Notes under the pieces: model-generated
The model's input: the letters and a program-made list of their open reading frames with translations, nothing else
Told to the model about the DNA's origin: nothing
Databases searched by the model: none
Position numbers and translations under genes: made by a program
Shown: one piece after another, positions 5,880-30,285 of the stretch
Layout of the letters: each line of letters starts with the position of its first letter
Position numbering within the stretch: position 1 is the first letter of the stretch
Source of the DNA: an uncultured Clostridia bacterium
GTDB taxonomy: Bacteria > Bacillota > Clostridia > Oscillospirales > Ruminococcaceae
Reading direction: 5' to 3'
Assembly: GCA_947589215.1 (NCBI GenBank)
Contig: CANQCL010000009.1
Span: 13,303 to 53,302 of the forward strand
DNA: 40,000 bases

Positions 5880-7142
5880 ATGGGTATGACTATGACTCAA
5901 AAGGTGCTTGCCGCACACGCTGGTTTGGATAGCGTAAAGGCAGGAGACCTGATTATGGCAAATTTGGATATGGTACTCGGAAACGATATCACCTCTCCTG
6001 TTGCCATAAACGAATTTAACAAAGCCGGCTTTGACAGTGTTTTTGACGGAAGTAAAATCTCTATGGTTATGGATCATTTTGCTCCGAACAAGGATATTAA
6101 AGCTGCAACTCAGTGCAAGCAGTGCAGAGATTTCTGCGGAGAGCTTGGAGTTAAGAACTTCTTTGACGTTGGAGATATGGGCGTTGAGCACGCTATACTT
6201 CCCGAAAAAGGACTCGTAGCGCCCGGCGACTTGGTTATCGGCGCTGATTCTCACACTTGTACATACGGTGCGTTGGGTGCGTTCTCAACAGGAGTTGGCT
6301 CAACAGATATGGCTGCCGGAATGGCTACAGGCAAGGCTTGGTTTAAAGTACCTCCTGCTCTAAAGTTTAATATTACAGGAAAGCTAAACAAGTGGGTTTC
6401 GGGCAAGGACGTTATTTTGCACATTATCGGTATGATAGGCGTAGACGGCGCATTGTACAAGTCAATGGAGTTCTCGGGCGAGGGACTTAAAAACCTCACT
6501 ATGGAGGACAGACTTTGTATGGCTAATATGGCTATCGAAGCAGGCGCAAAAAACGGAATCTTTGCAGTTGACGAGGTTACGCTTGATTTTGTCAAGGATA
6601 AGGTTTCAAAGGAATTCAAGGTGTATGAGGCTGATGCAGACGCCGAATATGAAAAGGTTTATGATATTGACCTTTCACAAATAAAGCCTACTGTATCTTT
6701 TCCGCATTTACCGGAAAACGCTAAAACCTTCGACGAGTTCGGCGATATAAAGATAGATCAAGTGGTTATCGGCTCATGTACAAACGGAAGAATCGAAGAC
6801 CTACGTGCCGCTGCTGAAATTCTCAAAGGCAAAACGGTCGCAGACGGCGTAAGATGTATAGTAATCCCTGCAACTCAGAAGATTTATCTTCAAGCAATGG
6901 AAGAGGGACTTTTGAAAATATTTATCGACGCAAGATGCGCGGTTTCAACACCTACCTGCGGTCCGTGTCTGGGAGGACATATGGGCATTCTTGCAAAGGG
7001 TGAAAGAGCCGTTGCTACAACAAACAGAAACTTTGTCGGAAGAATGGGACATCCTGAAAGTGAAGTTTATCTAGCTTCACCTGCTGTTGCTGCGGCATCG
7101 GCAGTTACAGGAAAGATTTCTCAGCCAACAGAAGTAATGTAG
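5880..7142 (+). CDS. leuC: 3-isopropylmalate dehydratase large subunit
   Basis: Aconitase-family motifs GADSHT and GSCTNGR. The ORF-track start at 5838 is a GTG. ATG 5880 ([10 protein letters not shown]) follows AAAGGAGA. Confidence 0.93.
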
Positions 7143-7151
7143 AAAGGTGGT

Positions 7152-7640
7152 ATGAATATGAAAGCACTAGGAAAAGTACACAAATACGGCGACAACGTAG
7201 ATACAGACGTTATCATACCTGCAAGATACTTAAACACAGCAGATCACAAAGAACTGGCCTCACACTGTATGGAGGACATAGACATCGACTTTGTAAAGAA
7301 GGTCAAGAAAGGCGATATTATGGTAGCGGAAGCTAATTTCGGCTGCGGTTCATCTCGTGAGCACGCACCAATCGCTATTAAAGAGAGCGGGATATCCTGC
7401 GTTATTGCAAAGACGTTCGCCAGAATTTTCTACCGCAATGCAATCAATATCGGACTTCCTATTATTGAGTGTCCCGAAGCTGCTGAAAACATCAGCGACG
7501 GTGACGAGGTAGAAATTGATTTTGACAGCGGTATAATTACCAACAAAACTAAAGGTGAAAGCTATCAAGGACAGCCTTTCCCTGAGTTTATAAAAAACAT
7601 TATAAATAAGAACGGTCTTTTAAATTCACTAAAAGGCTAG
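7152..7640 (+). CDS. leuD: 3-isopropylmalate dehydratase small subunit
   Basis: [11 protein letters not shown] motif, 162 aa short-type LeuD, 9 nt after leuC. Confidence 0.93.
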
Positions 7641-7653
7641 TGGAGGTATTATT

Positions 7654-7968
7654 ATGATTATTTTAACAATCGACAGTATACCCGGAAAAGAAATTGAAGC
7701 GTTAGGTCTTGTTAAAGGAAGCACAGTTCAGTCAAAGAATATGTTCAAGGATATGGGACAGGGCTTTAAGAGCATGGTCGGCGGAGAGCTTAAAAGCTAC
7801 ACCAAGATGATGAACGAGTCAAGAGAGATAGCTACAAAAAGAATGATCGAAGAAGCTCAAAGCATGGGCGCTGACGCAATAATCGGAGTAAGATTTGCAA
7901 CTTCATCAGTATTACAGGGTGCGTCTGAAATTATGGCATTCGGCACTGCTGTAAAAATCAAAGGTTAA
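7654..7968 (+). CDS. YbjQ/UPF0145 family protein
   Basis: 104 aa. The [38 protein letters not shown] pattern is typical of the YbjQ family. It is embedded between leuD and leuB. Confidence 0.8.
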
Positions 7969-7984
7969 TCGAGGAGACTTAAAT

Positions 7985-9058
7985 ATGAATAAGAAAATCG
8001 CAGTAATCAAGGGAGACGGAATAGGTCCTGAAATTGTCAATGAAGCTGAAAAGGTATTAAACAAGGTTGGAGAAAAGTATGGTCACACATTTGAGTATAC
8101 AGATGTTTTAATGGGCGGCTGTGCTATTGACGCAACAGGCGTTCCCCTGCCACAGGAAACAATAGATATATGTCTTGCATCAGACAGCGTTTTATTAGGC
8201 GCTGTGGGCGGTCCGAAATGGGACACACTTCCGGGAAATCTTCGTCCTGAAGCAGGACTGCTCGGCATTAGAGGTGCAATGAAGCTGTTTGCAAACATTC
8301 GTCCTGCTAAATTAATACCTGCTCTTGCAGGGGCTTGCCCGCTCAAAGACGAGATAACCAAAAACGGTCTTGATCTTGTTATAGTTCGTGAACTTATCGG
8401 CGGAGCATATTTCGGTGAGCGTGACACTCACGTTGACGAAAACGGCGTAAAGCACGCAAGCGATTCAATGGCTTATGCCGACTACGAAGTTGAGAGAATC
8501 TGTCGTGTGGCATTTGATATGGCAAGAAAAAGAGGCAAAAAGGTCCACTCGGTCGACAAAGCAAACGTACTTGATTCATCACGTTTATGGAGAGAGGTTG
8601 CACACAAGGTAGCAGAGGAATATCCGGACGTTGAGTTTCAAGACATTTTAGTCGACAACACAGCTATGCAGCTTGTACACAATCCCGCCCAGTTTGACGT
8701 AATGGTAACCGAGAACCTGTTCGGAGACATTCTTTCAGATGAGGCTTCAATGATCACAGGCTCGCTGGGTATGATACCATCAGCGTCACTTGGCGAAGGC
8801 TCACTGGGACTTTACGAGCCTATTCACGGTTCTGCGCCTGATATTGCAGGGCAAAACAAGGCTAATCCTCTTGCTACAATTCTCTCTGTAGCAATGATGC
8901 TCCGCTACTCATTTGATATGAGCAAAGAAGCTGACTCTATAGAGGATGCAGTTGACAAGGTTCTGGCAGACGGCTACCGCACAGGCGACATTATGTCTGA
9001 GGGTATGAAGTGCGTTTCGTGCAGTGAGATGGGAGATTTAGTGGCTGACAGAATATAA
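7985..9058 (+). CDS. leuB: 3-isopropylmalate dehydrogenase
   Basis: [20 protein letters not shown] signature, 357 aa. Confidence 0.95.
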
Positions 9059-11273: not shown

Positions 11274-12677
11274 CTACTTCGTCTTTTTATTAACAACCTT
11301 GCTCCACTTTCCAAAATACTTCCTGCCATTTGCAAGTTTATATGCTCTTACCTTTACAAAGTATTTCTTCTTTGGTTTCAGCTTCTTAAGTGTCACTTTA
11401 TTTTTCTTTACTGTAACTGTCTTCTTATTCTTTGTGAATTTATTATTCGTAGCATACTGAACCTCATACCCTGTTGCTCCGCTTACCTTTTTCCACTTTA
11501 CATTCAGCTTCTTTTTCTTTGTGGTCAGTTTAACAGATTTTACTTTGGCGGGTTTGGTTACGCTTACTTTTGTTGTGCTTGGGGTTGTCTTTGACTTGTT
11601 TACTGGACTGACGGTTTGATTTGGTTTGTTTGAGTTATTGTTTGGGGTTTGTGATGGGTTATTACCACCTATTTTTTTATAAGTTGCCTTTTCCCAATCA
11701 ACCCCACTATCTTCAAAATATGTTTTATTCCCGTTTTCATCATATTCGCACTTTATCCAGGTATCATTATCACTATCTAATCCATATGCTGTTTTTACAT
11801 TTCCGTTACTATAGTATGTGTATGTCCATGCAGTTGAATGTGAATAACCGTCACTGGTTTCAAAAAAAGTACAATTTCCCTTTGAATCATAGGTGTGTTT
11901 TTCCCAATAACCGTTACTGTATTCATGATATGTCTCATTCCCATTTGAATCATAGGTGTACTTTTCCCATTCGCCGTAACTGTTTTCAAAGTATGTTTCA
12001 TTTCCATTTGAATCATAGTTATGCTTGTCACCGTTACTATTTTCAAAATATGTACGATTTCCGTTTGAATTATAGGTAGACTTTTCCCAATAGCCTTCAC
12101 TGTCTTCGTAATATGTACGATTTCCATTTGAGTCATAGGTTTCCTTTTCACCATTACTGTTTCCTATATAAATATTTCCGTTATCGTCATACTTGGTCTC
12201 TTCCCAGAAGTTATCACTGTTTTCAAAGTATATCCCGTTCTCATCACATTCATATTTTACCCAAAAGTCATTATTACTATCTATTCCATATGCAGTTTTT
12301 ATTTTTCCATTAACATTGTAAGTATATTCCCATGTTAGTGTATATGAATAACCGCTACTATCTTCATAATAAGTTATATCTTCGTTTGAATTATAAATGC
12401 TTTTTTCCCAATAACCATCTCCATCATTAAAATATGTCTGATTTCCATTTGAGTCATAGGTTTCCTTTTCACCATTACTGTTTTCATAAGATGTTTGATT
12501 ACCTGTAGAATCATATGTAGACTTATACCAATAACCTTCACTGTTTTCATAATATGTACAAACATATCCTTCTACAGGTTCACCAACATTTACAGCCTCA
12601 GCTATTGTAGGTAAAGCTCCTGCCAAACTAACTGTCATTACCAATACTGTCAATAAATTTAAAATTCTTTTTGTCAT
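11274..12677 (-). CDS. secreted YD-like repeat protein with a C-terminal basic FN3-like domain
   Basis: Signal peptide MTKRILNLLTVLVMTVSLAGALPTIAEA. About 14 copies of a ~21-aa unit (YDSNGNETYFENSxGxWEKxT). A P/S/T/N linker follows, then KLNVKWKKVSGATGYEVQYATNNKF...YFVKVRAY...GKWS. Confidence 0.8.
   Translation of the reverse strand: MTKRILNLLTVLVMTVSLAGALPTIAEAVNVGEPVEGYVCTYYENSEGYWYKSTYDSTGNQTSYENSNGEKETYDSNGNQTYFNDGDGYWEKSIYNSNEDITYYEDSSGYSYTLTWEYTYNVNGKIKTAYGIDSNNDFWVKYECDENGIYFENSDNFWEETKYDDNGNIYIGNSNGEKETYDSNGNRTYYEDSEGYWEKSTYNSNGNRTYFENSNGDKHNYDSNGNETYFENSYGEWEKYTYDSNGNETYHEYSNGYWEKHTYDSKGNCTFFETSDGYSHSTAWTYTYYSNGNVKTAYGLDSDNDTWIKCEYDENGNKTYFEDSGVDWEKATYKKIGGNNPSQTPNNNSNKPNQTVSPVNKSKTTPSTTKVSVTKPAKVKSVKLTTKKKKLNVKWKKVSGATGYEVQYATNNKFTKNKKTVTVKKNKVTLKKLKPKKKYFVKVRAYKLANGRKYFGKWSKVVNKKTK
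11673..12560 (-). repeat. in-frame coding tandem repeats (63-nt period) with a nested ~321-nt duplication
   Basis: The motif CCATTTGA(A/G)TCATAGGT recurs throughout. A 44-nt exact copy occurs at 12119-12162 and 12440-12483 (offset 321 nt = 107 aa), matching the duplicated NSNGEKETYDSNGN. Confidence 0.85.
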
Positions 12678-12728
12678 TTGTTTTCCTCCATATTGAAAAT
12701 ATTATTTTGTACTTTAGTGTACATCAAT

Positions 12729-12757
12729 ATTATAATACACATTTCTAGTTTTGTCAA
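12729..12757 (-). promoter_or_regulatory. consensus sigma-A promoter for the YD-like repeat gene
   Basis: The minus strand reads TTGACA (12757-12752), a 17-nt spacer, then TATAAT (12734-12729). Confidence 0.55.
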
Positions 12758-12761
12758 CACA

Positions 12762-12797
12762 TTTTGTGTATAAATAAAAATCCCCGTTTTGTGTATA
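12762..12797. promoter_or_regulatory. direct repeats TTTTGTGTATA x2, candidate XRE operator
   Basis: Exact 11-mers at 12762-12772 and 12787-12797 (25-bp spacing) between the divergent YD-like gene promoter and the XRE gene start. Confidence 0.35.
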
Positions 12798-12822
12798 TTA
12801 CAATTAATATGAGGTGATATAT

Positions 12823-13137
12823 ATGAAATTCGGAGAAATCCTAAGAGAGTTAATTGAAGAAAACGACCTAACTCAAAAGCAGGTTGCAAAGGATTTAAAC
12901 ATTGCTCCGTCTACACTGGGAAACTACATTCACAACAGCAGAGAACCTGATTTTCACACAATAAAAATGATAGCAAGCTACTTCAAAGTTTCAATAGATT
13001 ACTTAATGGACTACCGCTCTACACTTGCAGAAAACAAAAGCGAGGACGAGCTTTTAAGAATTTACCGTTTACTTCCTATAACCTATCAAATTTTACTAAT
13101 TGAGCAAGGAAAATTACTTTTACGGTTGTACAAATAA
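12823..13137 (+). CDS. XRE-family helix-turn-helix transcriptional regulator
   Basis: LTQKQVAKDLNIAPSTLGNYIHNSREPDFHTIKMIASYFKVSIDYL is a Cro/CI HTH. GAGGTG lies 6 nt before ATG 12823. Position 12814 is a GTG. Confidence 0.8.
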   Translation: MKFGEILRELIEENDLTQKQVAKDLNIAPSTLGNYIHNSREPDFHTIKMIASYFKVSIDYLMDYRSTLAENKSEDELLRIYRLLPITYQILLIEQGKLLLRLYK

Positions 13138-13139
13138 AT

Positions 13140-13166
13140 ATCCCCGAGCAATTCGGGGATTTTTTA
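13140..13166. terminator. bidirectional intrinsic terminator between the XRE gene and the GH59-like gene
   Basis: ATCCCCGA-gcaat-TCGGGGAT followed by TTTTTT, preceded by an A-rich run. The 8-bp stem is the same as in the terminator at 10222. Confidence 0.75.
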
Positions 13167-16100
13167 TTTAACTTTAATTTTTATCAACTTTTTATTCCAC
13201 TTACCGTATATCTTTACAAGCTTGTTGTTGATATTTTTATACTCAGCATATGCCCTAACTCGTATATAGTAAGTTTTCTTGCTCTTGATTTTACTTCCCT
13301 TGATTGTAAGCCTTTTGTTTGGAGTGAATTTTTTAAATACTATATTTCTTTTCTTAAATTTCTTTGCTTTTGAAACTTGTACCTCGTAACCATTAGCATT
13401 ATTAATCTTCTTCCAGCTTACATTTAACTTTCTTTTCACCTTGCTCTTTACGGTGAGTTTTTTGATTTTTGCATTTTTCATAGCTTTCTTAGCTGCTTTT
13501 TTGTCACTTTTAACAGCGTCAGCACTTCTAGTAGCAGATGTAGAAGACTTGGTTTTAGACGGTGCTGCCGTTGAAGGAGGATACTCTCCCACATGGTCCT
13601 TAATATCCGCCTTAGCTGTTTCAAATGTTTCACCAAAAACCTCAATACAGTCGATAATAAAGTAACCGCTTTTTACTGTAATTTTAATCGTGTGCTGTTC
13701 GTTTGAAAGATTACTAATATTATATAGGCTTTGACGGTACAAAACACTGGAAGTAAGATTTATATTGTTACCCATAGATTTTCCGTCAAGCTCAATATCC
13801 ACTGTGCTTTCAGTTCTGATTCCGCCCACAACAAAGTTGATCCCTGTTCCGTTAAAGGTATACTCAAGAGAAGCGTTTCCCTCGCTTGTCGAAACGCTTG
13901 TTCTGTTATACAGAAAGAACGAATCTCCCACTTTACGCGTCCAGCTACCGCTGTATTTAACTGAGCTGTCAAGCGGGTCAATTCTTTCTGTATATGAAAC
14001 TGCATCCGCTCCTGTAATACTCTCAGAAGCTTTTTCAATTTTCAGGTTATCATATTCAGATAAGTAAAAACTGCCGTACAATCCTGCTCTGCCCAAAAGA
14101 TATGGATTGATTGTATCGGTATAGCCGAATATAGCAGTGTTATTAACATAGAACACTATCTCATTACCCACAGCGCTCACTTTTAAGTTATACCATTTAT
14201 TTGCGTCAAATCCCCTAACTGTACCCTCACTTAAAACCGTATTTGCTTTCATGCATTTGTATTTTCCGCTTTGTGCCAGTGATATCCAATAGCCAGACTT
14301 ATTGATTGCCGCAACGTTACTGCACGTTCCAACAGACCTCAGACCTACCCCGACATAATTATAATCGGATGCCTTCGGCTTGGTATCAAGCTTCACATCA
14401 GCAGAAACGCTGTAGTCTGCCCATTCGGTATCTCCTAAGGTAGTAGTGGGAGATGCTCCGCCTCCCCAGTTGAATGGGTCGTTGCTGCTATTTATCTTTT
14501 GTTTGAGTACCTTTGAACCGTCCGACTTTTTAACGACCTCAAATGCTCCGCCTGCGTCGCAGGTATAGAGCGGCGTTCCGCCTCTTTCTTCTATAAACTC
14601 ATCTGAATAGTTAAAATCATCTGTATACGGAAGTGAAAGATTTGTATCGGTTTCGCTTTTCTGATATGAAGATTTTTCTTCGTCAGCATATCCCTTCTGA
14701 CCTGTCATGGTAGTTAGCGTTACAATAGAATACGGCTCAACGGTATATGTAAAGCCTCCGTTATCAGGAGTTATCGTTTCAGAGTTTTTAAGCCAGTTTG
14801 CATCATAAGCTTGACCTGCGTCGGGACCCTTTGTGACCCAAGCTGTCAAAGGTGAATCAGCTTTACTAAGGTTGCTCACCGAAACATTATAAGTTCTTTC
14901 ATTAGATGTATCGTTTACAAACACCATTGTGTAATCCCCTGTTTCAGGATCAGCTAAAGTTATATAATTGTTGGTTGTGCTTCCTATTCCGTGGCCGTCT
15001 CCGTCAGGCGTTCCGTCACCATAGCAAGCGCCGTCAACATATTTCATATTATCAGTTTGGAATCTTGTAAAATGCTCCATAATGTAAGTTCCAACCTGAA
15101 CCTCATAGTGTCCGCTCCACGGCGTATCAGCCAATATAAGCTGCTTTGGAACATACTGCGCGCCTGTATAATATGCCGCAACCGCAGGCTGGAATTCATA
15201 CATTGTCATTCCGCCGCCCGTCGAACCGCTCTGGGCATACATATTAAGAACACGAACCGCAATTTCAAGAGGTCCGTTTACACCTGTCAAGCCTTTTCCT
15301 TTTGCAACACTGTCAAGCTCTTTTCCAGAAGCATTTGTTGCGTTTACGGCATACTGCGGGTCTATTGTTACCGAAGAACCCTCTGAATACCAAATCTCTT
15401 TGCCGTACTCCTTTTTTAGCTTCAGAGCATTTTCACTGGACCATGTAGAATAGTGAAATCCCAAAACATCGACAGCGTCTCTTAACTCTGCGTCATTCAT
15501 CATCTCGTCAGCAATTTTATAGTGTCCGACCTCATCGGACGCAACTAACTTGATTTGACTGTAATCATACTTCGCTCCGGATTCTTTTGCGGCAGAATCA
15601 AGATGATTTCTTAAATACTTGATCCATTTAACGTCAATATTGCTCGTTTCATTTCTGTCAGGACTTATATAATCAAATTTCAGACCGTACTCATCATAAG
15701 CGGCATCTAACGTATTTTTATACCACTTAAATCTCTTTGCCATATTTTCTTCATTTGTTACACCGTTTGACCCTGTCCATTTAGGTGAGCCCCATCGAAG
15801 CATATCTAAAGAAATATCAGGATTAATTGTTTTTGCGTCTACACACATATGAAACCCTGCTCCCCTGTTTACATTAGCCTCTTCGTTCTCAGCACGCATA
15901 GTAGCAGGTTCTGTTCCTGAGCTTGAATCGCAGTCAGAGCCAAGCTCGATCTTTATATGAGAAAGACCTATACCCGTTTCCTTGTTGAACAAATAGTTCA
16001 TTATCTCCCAATAAGCGTCAGGGTTCTTTTCTTTATAATCCATAAGAAGTCTTGAAGAATTGTTAGCAGAAATCGCTCCAAGTCTAAGTGAATCCTTTGT

Positions 16101-16244
16101 GATTTTGCTGCCGTCAACGCTGATTGAAAAAGCGCTTTCAGCATTAGCCTTTATATTATCTTTAGCCATTGGCATAACCCCCATTATAGAAAAAGTTAAC
16201 ACAATCGATGTAATAACGGCAAATATTCTTGAAGCATTTATCAT
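13164..16244 (-). CDS. secreted multidomain glycoside hydrolase, GH59 (galactocerebrosidase-like), with lectin, CBM-like and basic FN3-like domains
   Basis: Signal peptide present. NNSSRLLMDYKEKNPDAYWEIMNYLFNKETGIGLSHIKIELGSDCDSSSGTEPATM parallels the GALC block [52 protein letters not shown] (recalled from memory). A ConA/lectin-like region lies at aa ~540-740 and a CBM-like domain at ~745-880. The C-terminus reads KLNVSWKKINNANGYEVQ...YYIRVRAY...GKWN. Confidence 0.72.
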   Translation of the reverse strand: MINASRIFAVITSIVLTFSIMGVMPMAKDNIKANAESAFSISVDGSKITKDSLRLGAISANNSSRLLMDYKEKNPDAYWEIMNYLFNKETGIGLSHIKIELGSDCDSSSGTEPATMRAENEEANVNRGAGFHMCVDAKTINPDISLDMLRWGSPKWTGSNGVTNEENMAKRFKWYKNTLDAAYDEYGLKFDYISPDRNETSNIDVKWIKYLRNHLDSAAKESGAKYDYSQIKLVASDEVGHYKIADEMMNDAELRDAVDVLGFHYSTWSSENALKLKKEYGKEIWYSEGSSVTIDPQYAVNATNASGKELDSVAKGKGLTGVNGPLEIAVRVLNMYAQSGSTGGGMTMYEFQPAVAAYYTGAQYVPKQLILADTPWSGHYEVQVGTYIMEHFTRFQTDNMKYVDGACYGDGTPDGDGHGIGSTTNNYITLADPETGDYTMVFVNDTSNERTYNVSVSNLSKADSPLTAWVTKGPDAGQAYDANWLKNSETITPDNGGFTYTVEPYSIVTLTTMTGQKGYADEEKSSYQKSETDTNLSLPYTDDFNYSDEFIEERGGTPLYTCDAGGAFEVVKKSDGSKVLKQKINSSNDPFNWGGGASPTTTLGDTEWADYSVSADVKLDTKPKASDYNYVGVGLRSVGTCSNVAAINKSGYWISLAQSGKYKCMKANTVLSEGTVRGFDANKWYNLKVSAVGNEIVFYVNNTAIFGYTDTINPYLLGRAGLYGSFYLSEYDNLKIEKASESITGADAVSYTERIDPLDSSVKYSGSWTRKVGDSFFLYNRTSVSTSEGNASLEYTFNGTGINFVVGGIRTESTVDIELDGKSMGNNINLTSSVLYRQSLYNISNLSNEQHTIKITVKSGYFIIDCIEVFGETFETAKADIKDHVGEYPPSTAAPSKTKSSTSATRSADAVKSDKKAAKKAMKNAKIKKLTVKSKVKRKLNVSWKKINNANGYEVQVSKAKKFKKRNIVFKKFTPNKRLTIKGSKIKSKKTYYIRVRAYAEYKNINNKLVKIYGKWNKKLIKIKVK

Positions 16245-16387: not shown

Positions 16388-16771
16388 ATGAATATAAAAA
16401 ACAAGCTTAAAAATTTTAAATACAGTAAGGCATACTACTATGTCGTAGGCGGAATAACAGGAATTGCAAACGGACTTTTCGGTTCCGGCGGAGGAATGTT
16501 AAGCGTTCCGCTTTTAGAAAACACAGGTCTTAAAGCAAAAAAAGCACACGCTTCTTCAATAGCTATTACGCTTCCGCTGTCGATAATAAGCACTGCTATA
16601 TATTCAATCAAAGGACACATTAACTATTCGCTCGCACTCAAATTTGTACCTTTAGGTATTCTGGGAGCTATTGCAGGAAGCTGGCTTTTAAAAAGGATAT
16701 CTAACAAGGTATTGAAAAAAATATTCGGAATTATTCTTATAATTTCGGGAATCAGGATGCTGATGCTATGA
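16388..16771 (+). CDS. half-size TSUP (TauE/SafE) family membrane protein, subunit 1
   Basis: 127 aa, ~4 TM helices, GLFGSGGGML motif. Confidence 0.75.
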   Translation: MNIKNKLKNFKYSKAYYYVVGGITGIANGLFGSGGGMLSVPLLENTGLKAKKAHASSIAITLPLSIISTAIYSIKGHINYSLALKFVPLGILGAIAGSWLLKRISNKVLKKIFGIILIISGIRMLML

Positions 16772-17151
16772 GTATTTTTGTAATTGCTGTTGTTTCTTTC
16801 CTCAGCGGATTTATAGCCTCTCTCGGTCTGGGAGGCGGAATGGTGCTTATAATTTACCTTACGATATTTTCAGGTATGGCACAGCTTGAAGCGCAGGGAA
16901 TAAATCTCATTTTCTTTATACCTATTGCCTTGATTTCAATTATACTGCACACAAGGTCAAAGCTAATTATATGGAAAAAAATACTCCCGTCAATAATAAC
17001 AGGAGCAATCTTAGCACTTCTATTTAGTTTTATTGCAAGTATGCTGGGTTCTGAAATTCTATCTAAAATATTCTCAGTTTTCATAATAATAATTGGCATA
17101 AAAGAGCTTATTAAAAAATCTGATAAACAAAATACAGCAGAGCATAAATAA
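16768..17151 (+). CDS. half-size TSUP (TauE/SafE) family membrane protein, subunit 2
   Basis: 127 aa, ~4 TM helices, SLGLGGGMVL motif. An ATGA start/stop overlap links it to the preceding gene. Confidence 0.75.
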   Translation: MSIFVIAVVSFLSGFIASLGLGGGMVLIIYLTIFSGMAQLEAQGINLIFFIPIALISIILHTRSKLIIWKKILPSIITGAILALLFSFIASMLGSEILSKIFSVFIIIIGIKELIKKSDKQNTAEHK

Positions 17152-24738: not shown

Positions 24739-25131
24739 TTAAGTTCTGCCGCCTAACCCGAAGGAAATCGACAACGCACTGTTCACAGCGGACATTGAAT
24801 TCGTATCAAGCTCGCCCATTCTCTCTTTTAGACGGGTTTTATCTATTGTTCTTATCTGTTCTAAAAGCACCACTGAGTTTTTAGCAAGACCGCAGCTTGA
24901 AGCGTTTACTGCAATATGAGTTGGCAGCTTTGCCTTATCCATTTTGCTTGTTATCGCCGCCGCTATAACGGTAGGGCTGTGCTTGTTCCCGACGTCGTTC
25001 TGTACAATAAGCACAGGTCTCATCCCCCCCTGCTCTGAGCCGACTACCGGGCTTAGATCTGCGTAATATATTTCTCCCCTGTGGATTCCGTTGTCATAAT
25101 AACCCGACACATATAACACTCCCATTTTCAT
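24739..25131 (-). CDS. mazF: type II toxin MazF/PemK family endoribonuclease (EndoA/NdoA-like)
   Basis: [42 protein letters not shown]...KAKLPTH.....[13 protein letters not shown] is nearly collinear with B. subtilis EndoA. The GGGAG SD favours GTG 25110 over ATG 25131. Confidence 0.88.
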
Positions 25132-25364: not shown

Positions 25365-25594
25365 TAAGTATTGGAAACTTGAGAAAAAGTTTTCGCTCAA
25401 GCCTTTTTCAAAAGGCTTGCGGGTCAAGGGCAGAGCCCTGTCGCCGACCGCAGTCGGCGAAATCCCCCTTACGTAGTGCGCTCCGCACAGGGTGAATTTA
25501 AAAATAGTCCAGTGGACTGTTTTTAAAGAGGGGCATGCCCTGCAAGAGAGGGCTGCCCCTAAAAACAGAAAAATTTCAGAAAGGACAAATCGTT
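25365..25594 (+). promoter_or_regulatory. structured GC-rich 5' leader of gatC (unclassified cis-regulatory RNA candidate)
   Basis: Seven consecutive hairpins in an AT-rich intergenic region: 25372-25393, 25398-25419 (10 bp perfect), 25427-25439, 25441-25460 (8 bp perfect), 25476-25488, 25500-25524 (an A5/U5-flanked terminator-like stem) and 25529-25560 (12 bp with one bulge). Confidence 0.5.
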
Positions 25595-25873
25595 ATGGAT
25601 TTAGAAATGGTAAAATACTTAGCAGAGCTTGGTAAACTTGATTTTACCGAAGATGAGCTTAAAAAGGCGTCAAGCGATATGACAAGCATTATTGAGCTTA
25701 TGGATAAGGTAAAGGAAATCGACGTCACCTATGACGCTCTTGCCGATAACAAGAATATATATTTAAACGACTTAAGAGAGGATTTCAATGAGCCCTCAAT
25801 GCCTACCGAAAAGGTAATTGCCAATGCTAAAAACAGAGATAACTGCTTTGTTGTTCCAAAGGTAGTGGAATAA
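25595..25873 (+). CDS. gatC: Asp-tRNA(Asn)/Glu-tRNA(Gln) amidotransferase subunit C
   Basis: MDLEMVKYLAELGKLDFTEDEL...VPKVVE, 92 aa. GAAAGGA lies ~10 nt upstream. The ORF-track start at 25535 lies inside leader hairpin 6. Confidence 0.88.
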   Translation: MDLEMVKYLAELGKLDFTEDELKKASSDMTSIIELMDKVKEIDVTYDALADNKNIYLNDLREDFNEPSMPTEKVIANAKNRDNCFVVPKVVE

Positions 25874-25919: not shown

Positions 25920-27377
25920 ATGGAACTGAAAAACAGCAGTATTAATGATATAAGAAAAGCTCTAGACGGGAAGGAAATTTCCGTAAAAGAGCTTACCGAC
26001 GAATACTACAGCCGTATTGAATCGGCAGATAAAAAGCTTGACTGCTTTATAACCCTTTCAAAAGAACAGGCTTATAAGGCTTGCGATAAAGCACAGGAGA
26101 AAATCAATAATGGGCAGGCTTCACCGCTAACTGGAATACCAATGGCGATTAAAGACAACATCTGTACAGAGGGTGTTAAAACCACCTGTGCGTCAAGAAT
26201 GCTTGAAAACTTTATTCCGCCTTACAACGCAACGGTTATGGATAAGCTAGAAAACGAGGGAATAGTAATGCTCGGAAAGGTTTCTATGGACGAGTTTGCA
26301 ATGGGCGGTTCGACTCAAACTGCGGCATTCAAGAAAACTAAAAACCCATACGATACTACGAGAGTACCGGGCGGTTCATCGGGCGGCTCGGCAAGCGCCG
26401 TTTCTGCCGACCTTTGCACAGCGGCTCTCGGCTCAGATACAGGAGGCTCAATACGTCAGCCTTCATCTTTCTGCGGAGTTACAGGTATGAAACCAACCTA
26501 CAGCCGTGTTTCAAGATACGGTTTGGTTGCGTTTGCATCATCTCTCGACCAGATAGGACCTGTAGCTAAAAACGCTCAGGACTGCGGAACTATACTAAAT
26601 GCTATCTGCGGCTTTGATATTCACGACGGAACATCTGCTAAAGTAGATGTTCCCGACTTTAACGCAAAAATAGGCAAGGATATAAAGGGGTTGAAAATTG
26701 CTCTGCCTAAAGAGTTTTTTGCCGATGGAATAGACGATGTTATAAAAACTGCGGTTTTAAAAGCCGCTGACGAATACAAGTCTATGGGCGCAGAGCTTGT
26801 AGAATGTTCTATGCCGTCGCTTAAATATGCAATTCCGGCATACTATCTTATTGCGTCTGCCGAAGCAGCTTCAAACCTTTCAAGATATGACGGTATAAAA
26901 TACGGCCACAGAACTGAAAAAAAGTGCGAGTCATATGACGAGCTTATAAAAGCGTCAAGGCGTGAGGGATTCGGCGACGAGGTTAAAAGAAGAATACTGC
27001 TCGGCAACTACGCTCTTTCGAGCGGTTACTACGACGCTTATTACGGAAAGGCAATGGCTTTAAGACAGCTTATAAGAAAAGAATACAACGATATTTTTGA
27101 AAAGTGCGATGTAATTTTAACACCTACAACGCCAACTACGGCATATCGCTGTGATGAAAACATATCTGACCCTGTAAAGATGTATCAGGCTGATATTTGC
27201 ACTGTTACCGTAAATATTGCAGGACTTCCTGCAATCTCGACCCCGTGCGGATATGACGATAAGGGACTTCCTATCGGAATGTCTATTATAGGAAAGCCTT
27301 TTGACGAGCAGACGGTAATTCAGACAGCGAACGCTTATGAAAAGAACTTTACAAGAGTTTTACCAAACATAGATTAA
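25920..27377 (+). CDS. gatA: Asp-tRNA(Asn)/Glu-tRNA(Gln) amidotransferase subunit A
   Basis: Amidase signature GGSSGGSASAV and KDNI, 485 aa. Confidence 0.95.
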   Translation: MELKNSSINDIRKALDGKEISVKELTDEYYSRIESADKKLDCFITLSKEQAYKACDKAQEKINNGQASPLTGIPMAIKDNICTEGVKTTCASRMLENFIPPYNATVMDKLENEGIVMLGKVSMDEFAMGGSTQTAAFKKTKNPYDTTRVPGGSSGGSASAVSADLCTAALGSDTGGSIRQPSSFCGVTGMKPTYSRVSRYGLVAFASSLDQIGPVAKNAQDCGTILNAICGFDIHDGTSAKVDVPDFNAKIGKDIKGLKIALPKEFFADGIDDVIKTAVLKAADEYKSMGAELVECSMPSLKYAIPAYYLIASAEAASNLSRYDGIKYGHRTEKKCESYDELIKASRREGFGDEVKRRILLGNYALSSGYYDAYYGKAMALRQLIRKEYNDIFEKCDVILTPTTPTTAYRCDENISDPVKMYQADICTVTVNIAGLPAISTPCGYDDKGLPIGMSIIGKPFDEQTVIQTANAYEKNFTRVLPNID

Positions 27378-27396: not shown

Positions 27397-28824
27397 ATGG
27401 AAAATAAATATATAACAGTCATCGGTCTTGAAATTCACTCCGAGCTGCTTACAAAATCAAAGGTTTTCTGCACCTGCAACGCTGAGTTCGGAGGCGACCA
27501 AAACACAAGGTGCTGTCCTGTATGTACAGGTATGCCGGGAACTCTGCCTGTTATCAATCAGACTGCCGTTGAATACGCAGTAAAAGCAGGCTTTGCTTTG
27601 GGCTGTAACATCAGCAAGTTTTCTGTGTTCGACAGAAAAAACTACTTCTATCCCGACCTGCCAAAGGCATATCAGATATCTCAGCTTCAAAGACCCCTCT
27701 GTTTAGACGGTCTTGTTCCTATTGAGGTCGACGGCAAAAAGAAAAATATCAGAATTAACCGTATACATCTTGAAGAGGACGCAGGAAAGCTTATACACGA
27801 CGATTTCAACGGCGTTTCGCTTGCCGACTACAACAGATGCGGAATACCTCTTATCGAGATAGTTACCGAGCCTGATATTTCATCTGCTGAGGAAGCACAG
27901 GCGTTTGTGTCGCAAATTGCACTTTTGCTAAAATACGCAGGTGTCAGCGACTGTAAAATGGAACAGGGTTCGTTGAGATGCGACGTAAATATTTCTCTTA
28001 TGAAGCCCGACGATAAAGAGTTCGGCACACGTGCGGAAATCAAGAACCTAAACTCAATAAAGGCAATCGGCAGAGCAATTAAATACGAGGAAAGACGTCA
28101 GGCTCTCTTGCTTGACGCAGGAAAGCGTGTTATCCAAGAAACAAGAAGATACAACGAAAACCGTGACGTCACCACTTCAATGAGAAATAAGGAGAACGCT
28201 CACGATTACAGATACTTTCCTGAGCCGGATATTTTGCAGGTAAATTTCACTGATGAAATGCTCGACGAGATAAAAGCTAAGCTCCCTGAAATGCCCGACA
28301 AAAGAATCAAGAGATACGTTGAGAGCTTCGGGCTAAGTGAAACAGACGCTAAAATATTAATTCAGTCTAAGGTCGTTTCTGATTTCTTTGACGATGCTGT
28401 AAAAGCATATAACAATCCAAAGAGCATAGCATCATTTATTCTGCGTGAATTTATGAGAAGACTCAATCTCGGTGAAATTGATTTGGATAATCTCAATTTC
28501 ACAGCTGAGGATCTTGCAGAACTGGTTAAGCTTTCTGACGAGGAAAAGGTGTCTTTAAACGACGCTAACAAGACGTTCAGAGAGATGGTCGAAACAGGAA
28601 AGCTATGCAGTGAAATTATAAAGGCAAACGGATACTTGATAGAGCTTGACAATTCAAAGGTAGAAGCAGGAATTGACGAGATTTTAGCAGCTAACCCCGA
28701 GCAGGTTGAACAGTACAGAAACGGCGAAACAAAGGTATTCGGCTTCTTTATGGGAAAATGCACAAAGGCGCTTAAAGGCGTCGGCACACCAAAGGTTATA
28801 AAAGAAATTTTAGAGAGCAAGCTT
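27397..28824 (+). other. GatB domain of the fusion ORF (codons 1-476)
   Basis: IGLEIHSEL, CPVCTGMPGTLPV, and the C-terminal YqeY-like FGFFMGKCTKALKGVGTPKVIKEILESKL. Confidence 0.88.
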
Positions 28825-30285
28825 AAATCCGGTGAAACACAACAGCAAACACAGACATCGGAAGAAAGTGCAAAGTCTGAAAGCAACTCAAAGCCTGACA
28901 CATCAAAGCTAACTAAATATGAAAACCCCGATAAATTCACACCAAAAACAAAAGCAGATAACGACAAGCTGTTAGTTATAAGCGGTAAAAACGTAATGCA
29001 GGAATTTGACGTTGAAACTGCTCAGAACAATATCGGCTCGGAGGTTGAGTTCTCCGGCTGTGTTCATAAGGTCAAATCAATGGGAAGCATCTCATTCGTT
29101 GTTATACGAACAGCGAGAGACGTTATTCAAACCGTATATAATAAGGATAACTGCAAGGACAGCATAGACGGTCTGCATGAGGGTTATTTTGTTCATATTA
29201 AGGGTACTGTAAACGAAAACAAGCGTGACCAAAACGGCATTGAGATAATTCTGAGTGAGATCAAACTGATCTCAAGACCTAAAGAGGAATACCCTCTCAA
29301 GATTTCTCAGGGCGAGCTTAAATGCACGTTAGATGTAAATCTCGACAACAGAAGCGTTTCTTTAAGAAACCCTTATCAGCGTGCTATTTTCAAGCTTCAG
29401 GAAGGGCTTGTTCAGGGTATGCACGAGTTTATGAAAATGAACAACTTCACTGAGATCCACACTCCGAAAATCGTTGCTCAGGGCGCAGAGGGCGGAGCAA
29501 ATATATTCAAGATAGATTATTTCGGTCACCCTGCATTTTTGAACCAGTCTCCTCAGTTTTATAAGCAGGCTGCTATCGCTTTCTATGACAGAGTTTATGA
29601 AATAGCCCCTGTTTACAGAGCAGAAAAGCACGCAACATCACGTCATATAAACGAGTATATCGGTCTTGACTTTGAGATGGGATACATCGATAGTATGTAT
29701 GATGTTATGAATATGGAAACGGCAATGCTCAAACATATTTTTGCGTACATTGAGAAAAACTACTCTAAGGAAATAAAACTTCTCAACGCTGATGTTCCGC
29801 ATATTACTGATATACCATCAATAAGGTTTTCTGACGCTATTGAACTTTTGCGAGGCAAGAATGTTTCAACGAAGTTCGATTTAGACCCTGAGGACGAGGT
29901 AAATCTCTGCAAGTATGCAAAAGAAAAGTATGACAGCGAGTTTATATTCATAACCCACTTCCCCAGCTCTAAACCTCCGTTTTACGCTATGGACGACAGA
30001 GAAGACCCTAAAGCCGCATATAAGTTTGACCTTATATTCAGAGGGCTTGAGATAACCTCAGGCGGTCAAAGAATTCACGATTATGACGAGCAGGTAGCAA
30101 AAATGAAACGTCAGGGATTAGACCCTGCCGACTTTGAAAATTATCTGGAGTCTCATAAGTACGGTCTTCCTCCGCACGGCGGTTTGGGAATAGGTCTGGA
30201 ACGTCTTTTGATGAAGCTTCTTAACTACTCAAATATTCGTGAAACATCAATGTTCCCAAGAGATTTAAACAGATTGCTGCCATAA
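27397..30285 (+). CDS. gatB: fusion protein: amidotransferase subunit GatB joined to an archaeal-type aspartyl-tRNA synthetase
   Basis: A single 962-codon ORF. The N-terminal 476 aa are GatB through the YqeY-like tail (..KVIKEILESKL). A 48-aa linker follows, then a 438-aa class IIb AspRS (LNQSPQFYKQ, VYRAEKHATSRHINEY, SGGQRIH, GLPPHGGLGIGLERL, FPRDLNRLLP). Confidence 0.9.
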   Translation: MENKYITVIGLEIHSELLTKSKVFCTCNAEFGGDQNTRCCPVCTGMPGTLPVINQTAVEYAVKAGFALGCNISKFSVFDRKNYFYPDLPKAYQISQLQRPLCLDGLVPIEVDGKKKNIRINRIHLEEDAGKLIHDDFNGVSLADYNRCGIPLIEIVTEPDISSAEEAQAFVSQIALLLKYAGVSDCKMEQGSLRCDVNISLMKPDDKEFGTRAEIKNLNSIKAIGRAIKYEERRQALLLDAGKRVIQETRRYNENRDVTTSMRNKENAHDYRYFPEPDILQVNFTDEMLDEIKAKLPEMPDKRIKRYVESFGLSETDAKILIQSKVVSDFFDDAVKAYNNPKSIASFILREFMRRLNLGEIDLDNLNFTAEDLAELVKLSDEEKVSLNDANKTFREMVETGKLCSEIIKANGYLIELDNSKVEAGIDEILAANPEQVEQYRNGETKVFGFFMGKCTKALKGVGTPKVIKEILESKLKSGETQQQTQTSEESAKSESNSKPDTSKLTKYENPDKFTPKTKADNDKLLVISGKNVMQEFDVETAQNNIGSEVEFSGCVHKVKSMGSISFVVIRTARDVIQTVYNKDNCKDSIDGLHEGYFVHIKGTVNENKRDQNGIEIILSEIKLISRPKEEYPLKISQGELKCTLDVNLDNRSVSLRNPYQRAIFKLQEGLVQGMHEFMKMNNFTEIHTPKIVAQGAEGGANIFKIDYFGHPAFLNQSPQFYKQAAIAFYDRVYEIAPVYRAEKHATSRHINEYIGLDFEMGYIDSMYDVMNMETAMLKHIFAYIEKNYSKEIKLLNADVPHITDIPSIRFSDAIELLRGKNVSTKFDLDPEDEVNLCKYAKEKYDSEFIFITHFPSSKPPFYAMDDREDPKAAYKFDLIFRGLEITSGGQRIHDYDEQVAKMKRQGLDPADFENYLESHKYGLPPHGGLGIGLERLLMKLLNYSNIRETSMFPRDLNRLLP
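28825..28968 (+). other. low-complexity K/S/E/T/Q linker (codons 477-524)
   Basis: KSGETQQQTQTSEESAKSESNSKPDTSKLTKYENPDKFTPKTKADNDK. It stays in frame, with no stop codon and no obvious internal SD+ATG. Confidence 0.8.
28969..30285 (+). other. aspS: archaeal/eukaryal-type AspRS domain of the fusion ORF (codons 525-962)
   Basis: An OB-fold (VEFSGCVHKVKSMGSISFVVIRTARDVIQTVY) plus all three class II motifs. Collinear along its whole length with Pyrococcus-type AspRS (recalled from memory). Confidence 0.88.

Follow-up and report, generated by a model that had tools for sequence, protein, structure and literature searches.

A full-length GatB-AspRS gene fusion in Ruminococcus-type Clostridia as a candidate for a covalently tethered Asn-transamidosome

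In a 40,000-nucleotide stretch of DNA from an uncultured Clostridia bacterium (contig CANQCL010000009.1, positions 13,303 to 53,302; hereafter the window), we found a single gene, gatB::aspS2, in which the GatB subunit of the amidotransferase GatCAB is joined to a complete archaeal-type aspartyl-tRNA synthetase (AspRS). The full-length fusion is real and under long-term selection, and it would probably form, together with GatA and GatC, a covalently tethered Asn-transamidosome. Transamidosomes are the textbook case of substrate hand-over by which a tRNA that is mischarged on purpose is kept from the ribosome, and all characterised ones are, to our knowledge, non-covalent, ranging from stable to very dynamic.

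A full-length GatB-AspRS fusion under long-term selection

The initial annotation of the window described one uninterrupted frame of 962 codons, in which a complete GatB is followed by a full class IIb AspRS of the archaeal type. This description was borne out by the open reading frame (ORF) listing and, for both halves, by Pfam and NCBIfam, and all motifs quoted in that annotation were recovered in the 962-residue translation. The ATG of the gene is preceded by a GGAGG Shine-Dalgarno sequence. The gene is composed as follows, OB standing for oligonucleotide-binding and AF2 for AlphaFold2.

27397..30285, plus strand: gatB::aspS2 fusion gene, 962 codons and a stop, ATG start (ORF listing)
27415..28263, plus strand: GatB cradle (catalytic) domain, residues 7-289 (PF02934 GatB_N, E 9e-120, profile positions 1-276 of 277)
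28381..28824, plus strand: GatB helical domain and YqeY-like tail, residues 329-476 (PF02637 GatB_Yqey, profile positions 1-148 of 148)
28825..28896, plus strand: probable flexible acidic tether, residues 477-500 (low conservation, fixed length, disorder in the AF2 model)
28897..28998, plus strand: clade-specific conserved adaptor, residues 501-534 (motif D-[TI]-S-K-L-T-x-Y-x-N-x-[DN]-K-Y-x-P)
29047..29271, plus strand: OB-fold anticodon-binding domain of AspRS, residues 551-625 (PF01336 tRNA_anti-codon)
29065-29067, plus strand: codon of His557 within the OB domain (alignments to 1n9w and 3nel/1b8a)
29332..30264, plus strand: class IIb catalytic core of an archaeal-type AspRS, residues 646-956 (PF00152 tRNA-synt_2, E 1.6e-81)

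The N-terminal half is a complete GatB. Residues 3-478 scored 619 bits with the GatB equivalog model NF004012, against a cut-off of 338, and PF02637 was matched over its full length. This half aligns end to end with the GatB proteins of A. aeolicus and T. maritima (3h0l_B and 3al0_B), and when modelled it superposes on solved GatB chains with template modelling (TM) scores of 0.85-0.90. By GatB family assignment, it is predicted to act as the kinase/transamidase on Asp-tRNA-Asn or Glu-tRNA-Gln. The tail of GatB was previously reported to be flexibly attached and to bind the D-loop of the tRNA (PMC2811023).

The C-terminal half is a full archaeal-type class IIb AspRS. Residues 540-962 reached 539 bits with the aspartate--tRNA(Asn) ligase model NF003483 (cut-off 353), and the AspRS half also passed TIGR00458 (395.5 against a cut-off of 368.4), whereas bacterial-type aspS models stayed below cut-off for the fusion protein (181 against 443), as did the asnS models. 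PF02938 was unmatched in a Pfam scan, so that the AspRS core carries no GAD insertion. The motifs QSPQ, RAE..H..R..NEY, GGQRIH and GLGIGLERL are invariant across 64 aligned fusions. The best PDB match of this half is AspRS2 of T. thermophilus (1n9w/3kfu, E 1e-99), the non-discriminating enzyme that is also part of the crystallised transamidosome (3kfu). In addition, His557 of the OB domain aligns with a His of 1n9w and with Trp26 of the discriminating T. kodakarensis enzyme (3nel/1b8a), and its column contains His in 113 and Tyr in 8 of 121 family members.

Assemblies from NCBI, Logan and ENA contain the exact 962-residue sequence, on five contigs in all, and at both places shown (ENA and Logan assemblies) gene calling gave gatB::aspS2 as a single gene with its context unchanged. 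The same architecture, GatB_N, GatB_Yqey, OB domain and tRNA-synt_2 in one protein, was found in relatives as well: two homology searches yielded at least 183 different clusters at 90% identity that carry all four domains, cover 95-100% of the query, span 913-976 residues and reach down to 68% identity to the query. The carriers include isolates, namely Ruminococcus sp. Marseille-P6503 (on a 1.3-Mb contig), Ruminococcus sp. YE71 and Hominimerdicola sp. 21CYCFAH17_S; the former Ruminococcus albus is now placed in the genus Hominimerdicola. In a representative library at 50% identity, the Ruminococcus-type fusion family forms one cluster. Species-representative genomes were also scanned with universal GatB motifs, and 80 loci were dissected, which are a sample and not a census. 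At least two further fused genes were present among these 80 loci, each seen independently as a single ORF, one of 964 residues (L001) and one of 955 residues (L003).

No split alleles were found among the short members of the fusion cluster that were examined. In P0029, a cluster at 90% identity, members of 439 and 507 residues were considered as split alleles and rejected, being truncated gene calls, and members of 477 residues were considered as stand-alone GatB and rejected, being GatA brought in by a clustering artefact. P0029 also holds genuine GatA that does not align to the fusion; since GatA proteins are mixed in, its member count of 7,380 overstates the number of fusion sequences. 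Our data demonstrate that the full-length gatB::aspS2 fusion is real and under long-term selection.

Junction, operon and origin of the fusion

Codons 477-524 had been annotated as a low-complexity linker. This part of the annotation stood for residues 477-500, which form a hypervariable tether with a mean column conservation of 0.24 over query residues 481-500, and not for residues 501-534, which carry a conserved motif and are predicted to be ordered. Across 121 sequences, the tether measures 19-25 residues (median 21), is rich in E, A, S, K and T, and has a mean net charge of -3.4. In the adaptor, Y508 is kept in 110, N510 in 109 and P516 in 119 of the 121 sequences, and position 514 is Y or F in all of them. 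The near-invariant E536-F537 that comes after the adaptor corresponds to the residues 'MEF' with which stand-alone clostridial AspRS2 begins, and because of this match, about 58 residues would be new relative to the separate enzymes. An AF2 model of the protein, with a mean predicted local distance difference test (pLDDT) value of 73.8 and a predicted TM (pTM) score of 0.48, served only to tell ordered from disordered parts of the linker. The pLDDT was below 50 at residues 480-498, the sole region of the junction predicted to be disordered, and ranged from 63 to 82 across residues 501-540, with a short strand. No PDB chain covered both halves in the structure comparison. These results suggest that, rather than being a low-complexity spacer of 48 residues, the junction is probably a flexible tether followed by a folded adaptor.

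Both partner genes lie directly upstream of the fusion in the order gatC-gatA-gatB::aspS2, behind a structured leader.

25370..25595, plus strand: structured leader of 226 nucleotides with at least seven tight hairpins (inverted repeats), directly upstream of gatC
25596..25873, plus strand: gatC, 92 residues (Pfam GatC and TIGR00135 above cut-off; AAAGGA Shine-Dalgarno sequence)
25920..27377, plus strand: gatA, 485 residues, glutaminase subunit of GatCAB (TIGR00132, 617.6 bits against 481; Pfam Amidase, E 1e-153)

For gatC, the sequence most likely places the start at 25596, and this ATG, giving 92 residues, was also chosen by independent gene calls. The start of the longest ORF, at 25535 (112 residues), was rejected, since it begins inside the hairpin region whereas 25596 has a Shine-Dalgarno sequence. 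In L001 and L003 alike, the fused gene is immediately preceded by a gatA homologue; a gatC homologue precedes gatA in L003, and L001 contains a gatC-like ORF at 8177-8500. The other flanking genes differ between the window and these two loci. Since the flanks differ while gatA and gatC stay, the conserved unit appears to be gatC-gatA-gatB::aspS only.

The leader RNA has a minimum free energy of -93.7 kcal/mol, compared with -64.4 +/- 4.6 kcal/mol for shuffled sequences (z = -6.4), and it matched no Rfam family even at E<=10. It is identical in the same-species assemblies L081 and L082, absent from the fused loci L001 and L003, and single-copy in the DNA examined; no leader conserved among the fused loci was found. 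It may serve as a regulatory leader particular to this species; alternatively, it may be a structured element that was inserted here. A T-box (RF00230) was not matched in the window by Rfam at the gathering threshold or at E<=10, and none was found in L001 or L003. As the fused operon is without an Asn T-box and descends from housekeeping-type gatCAB, as described below, it is probably expressed constitutively.

The 80 dissected loci include at least 13 in which a separate archaeal-type aspS2 directly precedes gatCAB and at least 5 with a bacterial-type aspS beside gatCAB. In L016, a Bacillota metagenome-assembled genome, bacterial-type aspS genes at 6260-8005 and 11495-13270 flank gatA-gatB on either side. 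Among the matches listed, the closest unfused GatA and GatB are those of L002 and L004 (57-59% and 65-67% identity), which have no aspS nearby. In a neighbour-joining tree of GatB, the fused sequences were monophyletic with the unfused L002 and L004 as their sister group, and because of this monophyly a single fusion event in the Ruminococcus-type clade is indicated. On sequence grounds, the fused GatB belongs to the housekeeping-type gatCAB lineage of L002 and L004 and not to that of the aspS2-gatCAB operons.

T-box leaders were detected before the unfused aspS2/gatCAB operons in 4 of 11 loci tested, and the specifier is AAC (Asn) in L030 and L071, the two that were read.

L030 7964-8179: T-box leader (Rfam)
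L071 6496-6744: T-box leader (Rfam)
L009 6480-6820: T-box leader (Rfam)
L039 6242-6501: T-box leader (Rfam)

In L030 (Oscillospiraceae), gatA-gatB-aspS2 are unfused, with a gap of 10 nucleotides, and genes for tRNA-Met and tRNA-Glu lie just 3' of aspS2. This locus was considered as the pre-fusion ancestor and rejected: it shares no more than 46% and 42% identity with the two halves of the fusion, below other stand-alone enzymes, and with these identities it represents a parallel arrangement, not a direct precursor.

Fusions with GatB followed by AspRS were also found outside the Ruminococcus-type family. The representative library contains this order in P0121 (949 residues, Candidatus Baldrarchaeia), in P0183 and P0283 (970 residues, Candidatus Asgardarchaeia) and in P0176 and P0222, and in P0122 (1090 residues, Aminipila sp.) GatB is followed by a bacterial, GAD-containing AspRS. 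With stand-alone clostridial enzymes, each half of the fusion protein of the window shares about 51% identity; the corresponding values are 33-38% for the Asgard fusions (P0121 and P0283) and 43% and 29% for the Aminipila fusion. Because the halves are closer to stand-alone enzymes than to the other fusions, at least three independent fusion origins are indicated, with GatB first in every one of these fusions. Other fusions of GatB, among P0177, P0182 and P0143, join it to asparaginase N/C domains (817 residues), to tRNA_bind (701 residues) or to GatC (GatC-GatB, 589 residues); the first of these resembles a GatD-like glutaminase joined to GatB.

Proposed function and alternative explanations

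We consider it likely that the fusion, GatA and GatC together would constitute a covalently tethered Asn-transamidosome. The physical association of AspRS with GatCAB is given by the covalent joining of GatB and AspRS in one ORF. From the operon, we infer that the fusion assembles with GatA and GatC, and both the non-discriminating charging of tRNA-Asn and the hand-over of the tRNA between the active sites are predicted features of the proposed particle. In the proposed mechanism, the AspRS module would bind the anticodon of tRNA-Asn and attach aspartate, while the GatB tail, kept close by the acidic tether of about 21 residues and the adaptor, would grip the elbow of the same tRNA. The CCA end with its aspartate would then flip into the GatB cradle, where phosphorylation would be followed by amidation with ammonia supplied by GatA, and the product would be Asn-tRNA-Asn, made without free mischarged Asp-tRNA-Asn. 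Joining the GatB tail to the anticodon-binding end of AspRS would place the modules that bind the tRNA body on one side of the tRNA and leave the two catalytic pockets to share the acceptor end. Since class II AspRS enzymes are dimers, the particle would probably have the composition (GatC-GatA-GatB::AspRS)2, that is, 2:2:2. The likeness to 1n9w/3kfu, the recurrent fusions in the same order and the occurrence of aspS2-gatCAB under Asn T-boxes all fit a tethered transamidosome, as do the full-length halves, the conserved His557 and the length-constrained tether with its predicted ordered adaptor.

Several observations weigh against this proposal. Two marks, the His and a Pro in the L1 loop, are reportedly signatures of non-discriminating enzymes among archaeal-type AspRS proteins, and by its sequence the fusion has the His and lacks the Pro. 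The L1-loop Pro of 1n9w aligns with Gln612, whose column is variable among the 121 family members (F in 67, I in 15, P in 10, A in 9, Y in 9 and Q in 4). Since the Pro rule is said to come from other lineages, its absence lowers confidence in the non-discriminating status without excluding it. Mischarging and Asn auxotrophy have been followed elsewhere by complementation of E. coli trpA34 and JF448, respectively (PMC4206432). The AF2 model, whose AspRS half is recognisable but of poor quality, is silent on the docking of the modules. In the window and its 10-kb flanks (about 60 kb), no asnS, asnA/B, second aspS, glnS, second gatB or tRNA-Asn gene was found, and judged from this stretch of the genome, the cell may or may not depend on the fused route. 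If the GatCAB is the only one and glnS is missing, the fusion would furthermore be obliged to serve Glu-tRNA-Gln, for which the tether has no obvious benefit.

The fused loci examined likewise contained no asnS, asnA/B, second aspS, glnS, second gatCAB or tRNA-Asn. Bacterial GatCAB requires the U1-A72 pair of tRNA-Asn; no tRNA gene of any kind was present in the window, nor in the same-species and fused loci examined. In the related clostridial genome of Ethanoligenens harbinense, two gatCAB, two aspS and one asnS, and no glnS, were reported (PMC4206432), and Ruminococcus is not listed in the supplementary tables of that 2014 survey. Because of this inventory in E. harbinense, the fusion may have an accessory role in its carriers, a role that is countered by the placement of the fused GatB in the housekeeping-type lineage and by the lack of a T-box.

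A broader version of the proposal is possible but doubtful. The fusion could be the only GatB and the only AspRS of Ruminococcus/Hominimerdicola, in which case one obligate particle would make Asp-tRNA-Asp, Asn-tRNA-Asn and, if glnS is missing, Gln-tRNA-Gln, and the tether and adaptor would sort Asp-tRNA-Asp, to be released, from Asp-tRNA-Asn, to be handed to the amidotransferase. If this were true, the convergent fusions of Asgard archaea and Aminipila would identify covalent coupling as a general way to achieve fidelity in indirect aminoacylation.

It is rather unlikely that the fusion serves stoichiometry or stability without channelling. On that explanation, the link would ensure 1:1 co-expression or stabilise GatCAB, the AspRS would be mainly an ordinary, possibly the sole, enzyme for tRNA-Asp, and any Asp-tRNA-Asn would reach GatCAB by diffusion, in the manner of dynamic transamidosomes. 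The missing L1-loop Pro signature speaks for it, and a general-purpose enzyme would fit the lack of a T-box together with the housekeeping-type GatB lineage. Moreover, AspRS2 of T. thermophilus stabilises GatCAB (PMC4206432), and bacterial transamidosomes can be dynamic (PMC3367201). On the other hand, operon adjacency by itself gives co-expression in relatives, and the tight tether length and conserved adaptor exceed what co-expression needs. The conservation of His557 and the same N-to-C order in at least three independent fusions also argue for more than balanced expression.

Still less probable, to a degree that we regard as very low, is the production of two separate enzymes from the one gene, through cleavage of the tether or an internal start for AspRS. 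The tether is predicted to be disordered and exposed and is thus accessible to proteases in principle, but it is hypervariable and holds no conserved cleavage-like motif. Gene callers do sometimes begin truncated copies at internal Met codons; such calls are few, however: P0438 and P0439 were each seen on two contigs, and both agree with the corresponding part of the fusion at 99% identity. Start codons in frame occur at only three places between codons 440 and 600. Met534 has no Shine-Dalgarno sequence and is not conserved (K, I, L or V in most members), and Met562 lies inside the OB domain; an internal translation start for a separate AspRS was therefore rejected, no credible site being present among the in-frame starts of codons 440-600. 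Furthermore, the open frame and the fixed tether length in at least 183 clusters would be needless if the link were discarded.

The last explanation, that the gatB stop was lost or an indel introduced in the assembly or annotation of one contig, has nothing in its favour and a negligible probability; this concern, raised in the initial annotation, is refuted by the identical gene on five contigs from several source collections, by the frame kept open in at least 183 clusters, isolates with a 1.3-Mb contig included, and by the one fused ORF in each of L001 and L003.

Surroundings of the operon and comparison with known systems

Some further features of the window and its surroundings are recorded here. 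A PemK/MazF-family toxin gene is located at 24739-25131 on the minus strand. No recognisable antitoxin ORF was found upstream of it on that strand, just unrelated ORFs of 26 and 38 residues, and the gene may be an orphan toxin or may be accompanied by an unusually small antitoxin. Two overlapping genes of 127 residues each, at 16388-16771 and 16768-17151 on the plus strand, each cover one half of the TauE/SafE exporter profile; the C-terminal half precedes the N-terminal half, so that the pair is split and permuted. At 13164-16244 on the minus strand, a protein of 1026 residues combines GH59 (galactocerebrosidase-type) and its lectin domain with thioredoxin-like and fn3 domains. Phage tail genes (tape-measure, Dit and Sipho_Gp37) were noted at positions 1-8850 of L083 (contig ERZ27249206 NODE_166), about 1 kb past the right end of the window, where they adjoin the sporulation genes cotJA/B/C; they probably belong to a prophage.

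The GatB-AspRS fusion had been presented as novel. In the full-text literature searched, no description of such a fusion was found, and NCBIfam is without a model for it, which leaves this part of the claim standing. It is narrowed by the hundreds of fusion sequences in databases, by database labels and by a related hard-wired combination: JGI/IMG names some members as bifunctional, 'amidotransferase B subunit/nondiscriminating aspartyl-tRNA synth...', and NCBIfam models a bifunctional AspRS/GatC protein, NF009460 (PRK12820), so that a hard-wired Asn pathway has a curated precedent. NCBI names for fusion members mention only GatB or only AspRS, and because only one half is named, pathway reconstructions for the carriers may miss AspRS or the Asn route.

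As a covalent form of the transamidosome, the fusion is real, abundant and recurrent, and its family is abundant in fibre-degrading bacteria of the gut and rumen. The fusions provide evidence of the Rosetta-stone type, from at least three lineages, for GatB and AspRS as a physical pair. A natural covalent version would offer an intrinsically stoichiometric particle for cryo-electron microscopy and kinetics of the CCA-end flip, and by changes to the length of its tether and the sequence of its adaptor, the contribution of proximity to fidelity could be probed.

The fusions of Asgard archaea and Aminipila share with the Ruminococcus-type protein the order of GatB and then AspRS and a spacing of about 50-60 residues between the Pfam domain boundaries. 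They are rare, with 1-7 members per cluster compared with thousands of Ruminococcus-type sequences, and the Aminipila fusion uses a GAD-containing AspRS whereas the Ruminococcus-type fusion uses the archaeal type. The protein modelled by NF009460 is likewise a natural covalent link between AspRS and a subunit of GatCAB, but it contains GatC instead of GatB, its AspRS is of the bacterial type and the order is reversed; the fusion protein scored 80 bits against its cut-off of 1379 and is not a member. In Deinococcus radiodurans, GlnRS carries a YqeY/GatB tail (PMC1865053) and is thus also an aminoacyl-tRNA synthetase joined to a GatB-derived tRNA-binding module. There, however, the tail alone is present as an aid to tRNA binding; the protein is not an amidotransferase and has no part in the making of Asn.

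Operons in which aspS2 and gatCAB stand under a T-box, of the C. acetobutylicum type as cited in PMC4206432, likewise link an archaeal-type aspS2 to gatCAB. In these operons, the genes are separate and the T-box was present in 4 of 11 loci tested, whereas none was found in the fused clade (window, L001 and L003).

The Asn-transamidosome of T. thermophilus is composed of the same enzyme types as the proposed particle: the AspRS half is closest to its AspRS2 and shares its His, and the GatB half aligns with chain 3kfu_F of the Thermus complex. The L1-loop Pro of Thermus AspRS2, in contrast, is Gln or variable in the fusion family, and the Thermus host is a thermophile, whereas the fusion is carried by mesophilic Clostridia of the gut and rumen. 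It was reported that the archaeal-type transamidosome of Thermus is stable through the catalytic cycle while bacterial-type ones are dynamic (PMC3367201). The Thermus partners are separate polypeptides held together by the tRNA, whereas in the fusion they are one chain, joined by the tether and a clade-specific adaptor.

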